Positions 20,096 to 62,440 of a stretch of DNA of 64,000 nucleotides are shown here, piece after piece. The notes under the pieces were generated by a model. The model had not been told where the DNA came from and did no database searches. It worked only from the letters and a program-made list of their open reading frames with translations. How positions within the stretch are numbered: the stretch's first letter is position 1; every line of letters starts with the position of its first letter. The DNA comes from Eledone cirrhosa (Eukaryota), in assembly GCA_964016885.1 (NCBI GenBank), contig OZ024743.1, forward strand, positions 806,001 through 870,000. Reading direction: 5' to 3'. Position numbers and translations under genes: made by a program.

Positions 20096-20123
20096 TCCGT
20101 TTATATACATATATATATATATA

Positions 20124-20323
20124 TACGTTATTCCGGGTTGAATCGGAGGTAACCACAGTAAGTAAGGTACTCAATACATTGCAGAGTATAAAGGTTTTAA
20201 TATAGATGAGATTCTACAGGACTAGAACTGTTTCATTCTTTAGAAATCATCAGGAATCAGAGATTCCTGATGATTTCTAAAGAATGAAACAGTTCTAGTC
20301 CTGTAGAATCTCATCTATATTAA

Positions 20324-20326
<3 letters not shown>
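20124..20326. mobile_element. Short HHR element with back-to-back inverted hammerheads (palindrome 20194-20326)
   Basis: attc-CTGATGA-tttctaaagaat-GAAAcag(ttctagtc)ctgTA-gaat at 20263-20309 (+) and its reverse complement at 20211-20257; (TA)n on both sides. Confidence 0.85.
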
Positions 20327-20361
<35 letters not shown>

Positions 20362-51699: not shown

Positions 51700-51707
51700 A
51701 TATATAT

Positions 51708-51905
51708 AAGTTTTAATATAGATGAGATACTACAGGACTAGAACTGTTTCATTCTTTAGAAATCATCAGAGATTCCTGATGATTTCTAAAGAATGAAACA
51801 GTTCTAGTCCTGTAGAATCTCATCTATATTAAAACTTTTATACTCTGCTATGTATTTAGTACCTTACTTACTGTGGTTACCTCCGATTCAACCCGGAATA
51901 ACGTA
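51708..51905 (+). mobile_element. Back-to-back HHR element, third copy
   Basis: Intact HHR 51772-51818 (+) preceded by an inverted copy; (TA)n on both sides. Confidence 0.85.
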
Positions 51906-55856: not shown

Positions 55857-55924
55857 AAGTATAACAATATCGGTTTCAACACACGTTTACAGATAAAGAA
55901 TCTTGCTAAACAAATTCAGAAACG

Positions 55925-55972
<48 letters not shown>

Positions 55973-56040
55973 CGTTTCTGAATTTGTTTAGCAAGATTCT
56001 TTATCTGTAAACGTGTGTTGAAACCGATATTGTTATACTT
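55857..56040. repeat. ~72-bp perfect inverted repeat centred on (TA)n
   Basis: aagtataacaatatcgg..cagaaacgaa-(AT)n-ttcgtttctg..ccgatattgttatactt. Confidence 0.95.
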
Positions 56041-61032: not shown

Positions 61033-61249
61033 GTTATCTATAACGAAGATATAGGAAATATATTCGCTATAATCCCGATTGCTCACATTACTCACTCACT
61101 GAGATATGGTTTGAGCCTATAAGCGATCAAACCTATCTCAGTGTGTTAACAAAATGTATCTAAACTATAATAAAGTAAGGGGTGCCGGACTGCGTCCAGA
61201 ATATATTTGTTCATCCCGTTTGTAAAATAAGTTGGATTACTTTGAATAA

Positions 61250-61392
61250 ATAATTGTTTCTACTTTTTGCACAAGGCCAGCAATTACCCAGTGGATTACT
61301 GGTACTTTATTCTCGGCGGGATTTGGACTCAGAATGGCAAGAGCCGTAACTCTATGCGTCAAAGCATGGCGTCCGACCCTCTACCGATACTG

Positions 61393-61440
<48 letters not shown>

Positions 61441-61833
61441 CAGTATCGGTAGAGGATCGGACGCCATGCTTTGACGCATAGAGTTACGGCTATATATATA
61501 TATACACACAGCAGAAGAACTGCGAAACCGGTAAAGGAACCAAATAATTTTATAGATTTTTTAAAAATAAGACTCCAGTTATATTTTCGATTTGATCTTT
61601 TTTTCCTTTATACTTACACTCGTGCAGGACACCTGCAGGACACCTGCAGGACACCTGCAGGACACCTGTACGAGTGTAAGTATAAAGAAAAAAAAGATGA
61701 AATCGAAAATGCAACTGGAGTCTTATTTTAAAAAATACATATAAGATTGTTTGGTTCCTTTACCGATTTCGCAGTTCTTCTGCTTTTCAAAAGTAGAGTT
61801 GAGATGGAGGGTCTGTGGTTTTTCTCACATATA

Positions 61834-61932
<99 letters not shown>

Positions 61933-61947
61933 TGCCAATCCACCGCC
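61250..61947 (-). mobile_element. SINE (TSD ctttgaataaataatt) interrupted by an HHR-variant element insertion at 61395-61928
   Basis: SINE body 61250-61394 resumes at 61929-61947; atactgcc duplicated on both sides of the insert. Confidence 0.85.
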
Positions 61948-62440
61948 CTTTGAATAAATAATTAATGAATATTACATAATTTATCTACTAAATCTCGTTA
62001 TTCTTGATTAAATATAAATAATATTGTTGGTTATTTTAAGAGTCACTTCTTTAAAATTTTCAAATGTCAACACTTCCGGTTAGCGATCGCTTAAGTAAAC
62101 ATTCATATATTTCCGTCAATAATTTTCTCCTAATGTAGTTTATATATAATATCGTCTTTTTTTAATGTATCATGGATTAGGTTACTGATTACATAAGACA
62201 ATGTAACGCAGTTTTCGTTCAATTTATGTGTATATTGTCAATTACGATTTTATTTGATGTATCATATCTACATGCATATATACTTGCGTATAATATCAAT
62301 ATGCACACTACACATGCTAGCAGAAAAACCACCCGACGGGTGGTTTTTCTGCTAGTATTTGTACTAGGGCATTCGCGTATATATTTTTCCAATTTCTACA
62401 TACAAAATTACAATGCAAAACTTTTTTCATTAACAAGTAA

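Follow-up and report, generated by a model that had tools for sequence, protein, structure and literature searches.

New (TA)n arrays and a target palindrome at a rare composite insertion of Penelope-like sequence into a SINE of Eledone cirrhosa

Introduction

EN+ Penelope-like elements (Neptune and Nematis) encode a reverse transcriptase (RT) with a DKG motif, followed by a Cx4Cx2C linker and, at the C-terminus, by a GIY-YIG domain (PMC8557442). Their copies have a pseudo-LTR with a hammerhead motif, two fixed 3′ ends, inverted 5′-truncated partners and terminal (TA)n (PMC8557442, PMC3846280), and their target duplications measure 8-10 bp (PMC3846280). The association between Penelope and (TA)n has been read in print as a choice of target, with the duplications said to be hidden by the arrays (PMC8557442). 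For PAc, a Poseidon element of the green anole, two internal start sites define the tail, both strands are used and AT-rich DNA is preferentially cut; the RNA is AC-rich after the outer start site, and the start sites are reported to be non-homologous to the cut DNA (PMC11167929). Similar structures can also arise by other routes: yeast breaks form fold-back inversions and inverted pairs of captured sequence without any retroelement (PMC11724301), breaks that occur at TA repeats are mended through microhomology joining (PMC13645644), and the poly(A) tracts of L1 and Alu are born with the insertion and lengthen by slippage (PMC3812793).

The locus described here lies in a 64,000-nucleotide stretch of the Eledone cirrhosa genome (the window). 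Its source family shares with EN+ Penelope the order of protein motifs, the pseudo-LTR with a hammerhead motif, the two fixed 3′ ends, the inverted truncated copies and the terminal (TA)n, and the duplication at the locus, 5-8 bp, is near the published range. However, published inversions are head-to-head and their (TA)n is read as target (PMC8557442, PMC3846280), whereas here the pieces meet tail to tail and the tail is gone, the target had a single TA, and target DNA was copied in inverted orientation; the tail of the family is 62 nt long, compared to the 30-40 bp published. The family resembles PAc in its internal start sites, use of both strands, AT-rich preference and AC-rich RNA after the outer start site (seen here in copy L035), but in half of the TA-bounded end types seen here the start site carries alternating T/A bases over 3-8 nt. 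With fold-back and microhomology repair the locus shares an inverted break-adjacent copy, an inverted pair from one donor and TA microhomology at a join (PMC11724301, PMC13645644). Local fold-backs in yeast are mostly 5-34 bp, compared to 53 here (PMC11724301), and the repair studies deal with breaks rather than with retroelement insertions that have a target duplication and TA new to the site. Unlike the L1 and Alu tracts, the repeat here is a dinucleotide, occurs at several joins and is not a templated poly(A) tail. No report of TA addition by a Penelope RT, or of inverted target copies at Penelope insertions, was found in the main texts of the mainly open-access literature searched.

Results

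A composite insertion splits a SINE

The features of the locus are listed below in window positions; the arms are numbered on a 281-nt family reference cut from genomic copy L036.

61240..61255, unstranded: left copy of the SINE target-site duplication (16/16 against 61948-61963; empty host-repeat paralogues in public contigs).
61256..61394, minus strand: 3′ portion of the host SINE, with A/B-box-like motifs and a private 35-bp deletion (BLAST to many window copies).
61387..61394, plus strand: left copy of the 5-8 bp insertion duplication (sequence; empty paralogues).
61395..61438, unstranded: (TA)22, centre of the target palindrome, missing from empty paralogues (sequence; paralogue scan).
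61439..61491, plus strand: inverted copy of the 53 bp of SINE directly upstream (61342-61394), 52/53 (sequence comparison).
61491..61509, unstranded: (TA)7 and CACAC linker (sequence).
61510..61634, plus strand: left arm, part of the Penelope-like 3′ repeat in sense orientation, reference 117-241, starting inside the hammerhead motif (90.5% identity).
61624..61667, plus strand: four tandem 11-bp units at the fold point, based on the family AGG-ACA-CCT micro-hairpin (genome-unique).
61670..61830, minus strand: right arm, Penelope-like 3′ repeat, reference 71-230, ending at the usual family 5′ hot spot (94.4% identity).
61757..61796, minus strand: predicted minimal hammerhead-type motif, U3-A8 core, helix III palindrome with one base changed (descriptor match).
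61829..61931, unstranded: (AT)5 G (TA)46, linked by a 3-nt TAT/ATA match to the SINE (sequence).
61929..61947, minus strand: right copy of the 5-8 bp insertion duplication and SINE 5′ end (sequence).
61948..61963, unstranded: right copy of the SINE target-site duplication (16/16 against the left copy; public contigs).

The whole SINE, which appears to be tRNA-derived and whose 3′ portion is 97.9% identical to its closest copy over 94 bp, occupies the minus strand at 61256-61947 and is split after 61394. The element palindrome within it (61510-61784) is 275 bp long, with arms that are 87% complementary and 45 further right-arm bases beyond. Only the right join has a 3-nt TA match, the other joins having 0-2 nt. 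Sequence inspection, repeat comparison and BLAST located every part that an earlier note on this DNA had described, including the tandem 11-bp repeats between the two element pieces (four units) and the inverted target copy. The DNA around the SINE (61948-62300 and 61200-61255) is a high-copy repeat, so that the locus is nested three deep, and a small palindrome with 27-bp arms lies just downstream, at 62310-62363.

The target site was free of TA

Public contigs of the high-copy host repeat run through the SINE insertion point without the SINE, with loose ends at 61948 in 4/4 runs, and the 16-bp repeat is thus a true target duplication, of 15-16 bp given that the contigs mostly differ at the last base. 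The SINE does therefore have its own target duplication, as the earlier note had read it. The note had also reported a duplication at the split, and ATACTGCC is indeed present at 61387-61394 and 61929-61936; its last 5 bp are certain, while the other three (ATA) are ambiguous because they can belong to the array.

We scanned 209 sequences (1.57 Mb, with 4882 TA arrays and 2434 testable flanks) for empty sites. All 12 empty SINE paralogues found join both flanks at offset -5, without an array. This bears out the statements that other SINE copies have no (TA)n at the split and that the TA arrived with the insertion at this locus: the TA runs and the target palindrome are new at this site. We also sought a locus-specific bridge in the public contigs of four of eight candidate runs, three of the four from one sample, and found none, the flanks being high-copy repeats; neither a filled nor an empty allele of the locus was found in the contigs of those runs.

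The lack of a locus-specific bridge in these contigs, and a perfect 70/70 TA-centred palindrome 5.5 kb away, would fit a chimera, of reads or of the assembly, formed at a long TA run that is self-complementary. However, a chimera would yield identical copies, whereas the arms here are only 87% alike and the target copy has a mismatch, and both SINE halves and both duplications have been kept. With diverged arms, a mismatched target copy and two intact duplications, we consider a chimera scarcely credible.

The insert derives from an EN+ Penelope-like family

Hundreds of copies in the genome match the arms (738 candidates, 40 of them scored). L036 (2700-7720) and L035 are near full-length, frame-broken Neptune-like Penelope copies, with RT motifs in broken frames and the same 3′ sequence at their end. 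The Pfam GIY-YIG model matched a piece of copy L034 at 22.9 bits (cut-off 22.6) and the best Atlas match was an RT-domain cluster at 0.97, while the Pfam RT family gave no match on five other fragments; a C-x4-C-x2-C motif lies between RT and endonuclease in the translations of L034 and L036. Judged by these motifs, the source family is an EN+ Penelope-like element, with a predicted RT upstream of GIY-YIG in one open reading frame. 'Neptune-like' is used here as a label from motif order only, the linker motif (defined as CX2-5CxxC in PMC8557442) being common to Neptune and Nematis.

The copies also have the anatomy of such elements. L035 is a partial tandem, with the repeat before the open reading frame and again at the 3′ end, and so displays the join between pseudo-LTR and ORF. 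Family copies have two fixed 3′ ends, at reference 219 and 281, 62 nt apart, and 18 of them have a head-to-head inverted partner. A pseudo-LTR, a tail between fixed ends and head-to-head partners together amount to an EN+ Penelope-like anatomy, of which the first two are typical (PMC8557442). The 5′ ends gather at a hot spot, reference 68-76 (window 61826-61832), in 10 of 20 unselected copies (L284-L288, L292-L294, L296 and L297). This hot spot, some 70 nt upstream of where the hammerhead is predicted to cut, is also the usual head-to-head fold point; it may mark a start of transcription, a stop of the RT or a site of splicing. Since the arms belong to a longer RT/GIY-YIG element, a MITE or DNA transposon in a TA site was ruled out.

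The family carries a predicted hammerhead-type motif. A minimal U3-A8 descriptor, a variant described in PMC4209133, had 85 matches, 48 of them in this family, compared to none in reversed sequence. The minimal type I core is present in the sequence (3-8 pair, G-C opening of helix II, GAAA, palindromic helix III and a UH site), and helix II covariation is seen in related families. Helix I has just 3-4 bp, conservation of the motif does not exceed that of the flanking sequence (0.022 vs. 0.018 and 0.026), and Rfam had no hammerhead at gathering threshold or at E<=10; its miRNA hits reflect the hairpins. The earlier identification of the insert as Penelope-like with a hammerhead (HHR) motif is thus upheld by the RT and GIY-YIG domains of longer copies and by the descriptor match. 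It applies in full to the right arm, which has the whole motif, while the left piece starts inside it and lacks the 5′ core. A sister family (L257, L246, L256) has a U3-A8 core with GCAA instead of GAAA. Other families with hammerhead-type cores (C3-G8) lie at window 20100-20330, 51700-51900, 29200 and 29600; two of these are fold-back palindromes adjoining (TA)n.

The element pieces form a tail-to-tail palindrome from a single molecule

The two arms meet tail to tail, each reading in sense going inward, away from its TA run, and the last 40 nt of the reference (242-281), part of the normal 3′ tail, are missing from both. Given this orientation and the missing tail, neither of the two junctions represents an ordinary start of first-strand cDNA synthesis. 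The locus thus has the short target-site duplication of a canonical Penelope insertion, here 5-8 bp, and neither its antisense cDNA junction at a fixed 3′ end nor its head-to-head inversion. The TA runs here are not the usual 3′ end of the element, the orientation of the arms having been overlooked in the earlier note.

The fold is located at the AGG-ACA-CCT of the family. The 11-bp tandem is confined to this locus genome-wide (three overlapping matches, all here), and an exact pattern search of the genome found no second fold at the same hairpin in unchanged sequence; with tandem and fold each single in the genome, a mobile palindromic subfamily was ruled out. Two variants are common to both arms in 95 columns, one of them present at 11 other places and the other here only, while 18 head-to-head family pairs have 23 shared vs. 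86 unshared variants in 1865 columns. Such shared rare variants indicate that both arms descend from one molecule. The top-strand loop is in sense orientation and the right arm is the longer one, which would be consistent with a hairpin that had already formed when it was copied from the right target end.

A different reading is that host break repair built the complex parts of the locus, either because a copy of the element, genomic or cDNA, was captured at a break in the SINE, or because an ordinary short insertion was followed by a break at the inserted TA run, which fold-back and microhomology joining then repaired; the TA would come from the flanks of the donor or from iterative repair synthesis. 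The TA-centred 53-bp copy is what such repair is expected to leave, a microhomology-primed inverted templated copy beside the break, and fold-back and TA-break repair are already known (PMC11724301, PMC13645644). The ages of the parts are also compatible with it: the target copy, with 1/53 divergence, nominally postdates the element palindrome (1.9% vs. 6-9%), whose arms differ at 6/95 positions outside the internal AT run, as in other family palindromes (86/1865). The difference is not significant (6/95 vs. 1/53, p 0.42; 11/119 vs. 1/53, p 0.11), and both a single event and a two-step history therefore stand. Against host repair, the duplication is clean, 5-8 bp with no target loss, and is consistent with a nuclease having made a staggered cut; the right arm ends at the family 5′ hot spot; and the orientation of the loop would not fit fold-back of a broken right end. 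Nor was a donor found: none of the best 40 scored of 1014 candidates matched the left arm at more than 93%. We regard host repair, which the observations on element-free sites below would favour, as a somewhat unlikely origin of the complex parts.

(TA)n at family ends and in the interior of other SINEs

(TA)n/(UA)n flanks nearly every copy of the family. TA adjoins 84 of 87 fixed 3′ ends (77 classified by script and 7 by eye), two of the others running into CA and one into the ORF, and it was present at 20/20 ends chosen irrespective of TA (the first 20 of 99, with two duplicates). Beyond the array, the 77 classified ends have simple repeats (28), TA-bounded repeat ends (18), unique DNA (24) or TA-free repeat interiors (7); in all, 46/77 lie in microsatellite clusters or beside other TA-bounded repeats. 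A non-microsatellite duplication of more than 4 bp outside the arrays was seen in none of 44 other insertions with a defined 5′ end, a few of whose boundaries are mis-called. These two results favour insertion into existing arrays as the usual case.

The alternative is that the telomerase-related RT of the element is itself the source of the (TA)n, either through reiteration of a short UA run in its RNA or through slippage on the primer end, in which case arrays beside Penelope copies would be largely products rather than targets. Several observations are consistent with this. A single insert contains three TA runs, and the TA match at their joins, except for the right one, is 0-2 nt; the end of the target copy scores 1 in the start-site test. 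At the pseudo-LTR/ORF join of L035, the template continues as a short broken UA run and then becomes AC-rich, so that the element itself encodes no long array. Half of the TA-bounded end types for which an inverted partner reveals the continuation of the template (20/40) continue with at least 3 alternating T/A bases at the start site, compared to 8.9% in the null, the runs at internal start sites being 3-8 nt long (random loci L037-L133 and the window). Lastly, one SINE anchor has (TA)6 within 30 nt at no fewer than 39 places (100 of 148 overlapping matches listed), against 3 for (CA)6 and 2 for (TG)6, although TA tracts outnumber CA/TG tracts only about twofold (496 vs. 228). However, annealing to a (TA)n primer already in place would account for these UA runs equally well, and the 44 insertions without duplication and the 46/77 clustered ends also count against RT addition. 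The one Penelope protein that has been purified is reported to cut AT-rich DNA and to start at non-homologous internal sites, the main text making no mention of repeat addition (PMC11167929). We regard addition of the arrays by the RT as unlikely, and it is likewise improbable that a Neptune-type RT reiterates a UA run and lays (TA)n on any free 3′ end in the manner of telomerase, the ends then snapping back and copying the target.

Other SINE interiors joined to (TA)n are informative in this respect. A second SINE anchor has TA at no fewer than 28 places, 10 of them at the GGCAG/TAT join that forms the right junction here. Among 62 SINE-(TA)n junctions (from 67 listed, leaving out this locus, three internal deletions and one duplicate), 32 are lone truncated copies, 10 follow a tandem copy, 10 have TA on both sides, 4 follow an inverted copy and 6 seem to retain the rest of the SINE. 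The apparent rest proved to be a separate copy at L219, L233, L238 and L245, and at L253 a 5′-truncated copy 1.6 kb on, with no duplication. Not one of the 62 represents a complete insertion of an element; where SINEs break at TA, the other half is usually lost, as would be expected from host repair. Four loci join a family 3′ end to a SINE interior via a short TA run, and none of them has the other SINE half within 1.5 kb. Likewise, a SINE-interruption scan of 1.03 Mb had no TA-bounded insert with both SINE halves in its 19 rows, though it missed this locus too because the 5′ half is too short. In two intact SINEs (L214 647-659 and L217 5349-5360), a pure (TA)6 patch of 13-15 bp has replaced a few bases without any element sequence, so that the element is not needed in the product, again consistent with host repair.

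TA is thus laid at TA-free sites in this genome, and this locus is the sole complete element case found: no second complete event was seen in 1.57 Mb, at the 62 SINE-TA junctions or at the four SINE-TA-element junctions. The general claim of the earlier note, that these elements produce arrays as a rule, is not supported, given the absence of duplications outside arrays (0/44), the clustered ends (46/77) and the absence of complete insertions (0/62).

Some SINE copies have a Penelope-like anatomy, a full copy with a 5′ piece that is either head-to-head (L223, L233, L251, L206, L247) or in tandem (L196, L218, L224, L231, L232, L235) and ends in (TA)n. SINE RNA may sometimes be copied by the Penelope enzyme.

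Inverted flank copies are found at TA tracts

Tract-centred inverted copies of a flank occur at 13/954 TA tracts and at 0/477 control tracts (0/342 CA/TG and 0/135 GA/TC; p 0.007 pooled, p 0.028 for the random set only). The script rows numbered 15/496 TA for the random loci and window and 7/458 for targeted loci, of which 7 and 2 low-complexity rows, respectively, were dropped by eye. Under strict criteria 2/231 TA tracts remain, both in this window. The mirror control is noisy (14/496 TA, 11/228 CA/TG) because of low-complexity flanks. In two further cases, L015 (~55 bp) and L294 (~14 bp), an inverted copy of one flank lies beyond a family unit. The enrichment at TA tracts only, together with these cases, supports the earlier proposal of snap-back at a self-complementary TA end. 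However, L187, L225 and L269 have TA-centred inverted copies of non-element flanks, as host repair would produce, and snap-back is thus a property of TA ends rather than proof of Penelope action. Short-range inverted repeats in general occur about once per 6 kb (164 rows in 1.03 Mb). The perfect inverted flank copy at window 55857-56040, around (TA)22, is either very recent or an assembly error.

Discussion

We propose, with about even confidence for and against, that the locus arose when a hairpin that had primed itself was inserted in one aberrant Penelope integration; TA seeds would have been copied into every join and have grown longer afterwards. A right arm that ends at the family hot spot, arms that come from one molecule and a TA-free site all support a single Penelope integration.

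In this scheme, a staggered cut would leave 5-8 nt 3′ overhangs, giving rise to the duplication. A sense template running from the 5′ hot spot to AGG-ACA-CCT would prime itself, giving a tail-to-tail hairpin without the 3′ tail, the geometry that is seen at the locus; such an inversion is the predicted product of self-priming on a sense template (PMC3846280). A private change made a 4-bp palindrome at which synthesis could have re-aligned three more times, yielding the 11-bp tandem. The right target end, which ends in TAT, would then have been joined via a TA run to the hairpin, which would have been copied round to position 117. The left end, which has no TA match, would have acquired a TA run, folded back on itself and been extended by a copy of 53 nt of its own strand, which is the product observed, after which both products would have been joined through (TA)7(CA). 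The seeds would most likely have come from the (TA)n/(UA)n template that flanks family copies, with slippage lengthening them later. Because slippage of dinucleotide tracts begins at 4-5 units (PMC3812793), the insert need have brought no more than seeds.

The evidence against this integration scheme is that there is a single locus only, with no second complete event. As neither junction is a canonical first-strand start, the sequence does not reveal the action of the Penelope enzyme. The composite is real and rare, and the idea that the family produces arrays rather than occupying them is not borne out as a rule.

The locus nevertheless provides a known target without an array, at which three arrays and a target palindrome came with the insert, and this opens the choice between target and product to direct testing, both in vitro and by comparison of orthologues. 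It is also a natural example of the predicted tail-to-tail product of self-priming, and it bears on the abundance in this genome of short-range inverted repeats. If the RT did add the arrays, the textbook '(TA)n insertion preference' would in part be a product, and these elements would be the main makers of the TA microsatellites and local palindromes of the genome. As it stands, the insertion is likely to have created microsatellites and palindromes at this locus, while most of its relatives appear to sit in existing TA runs.
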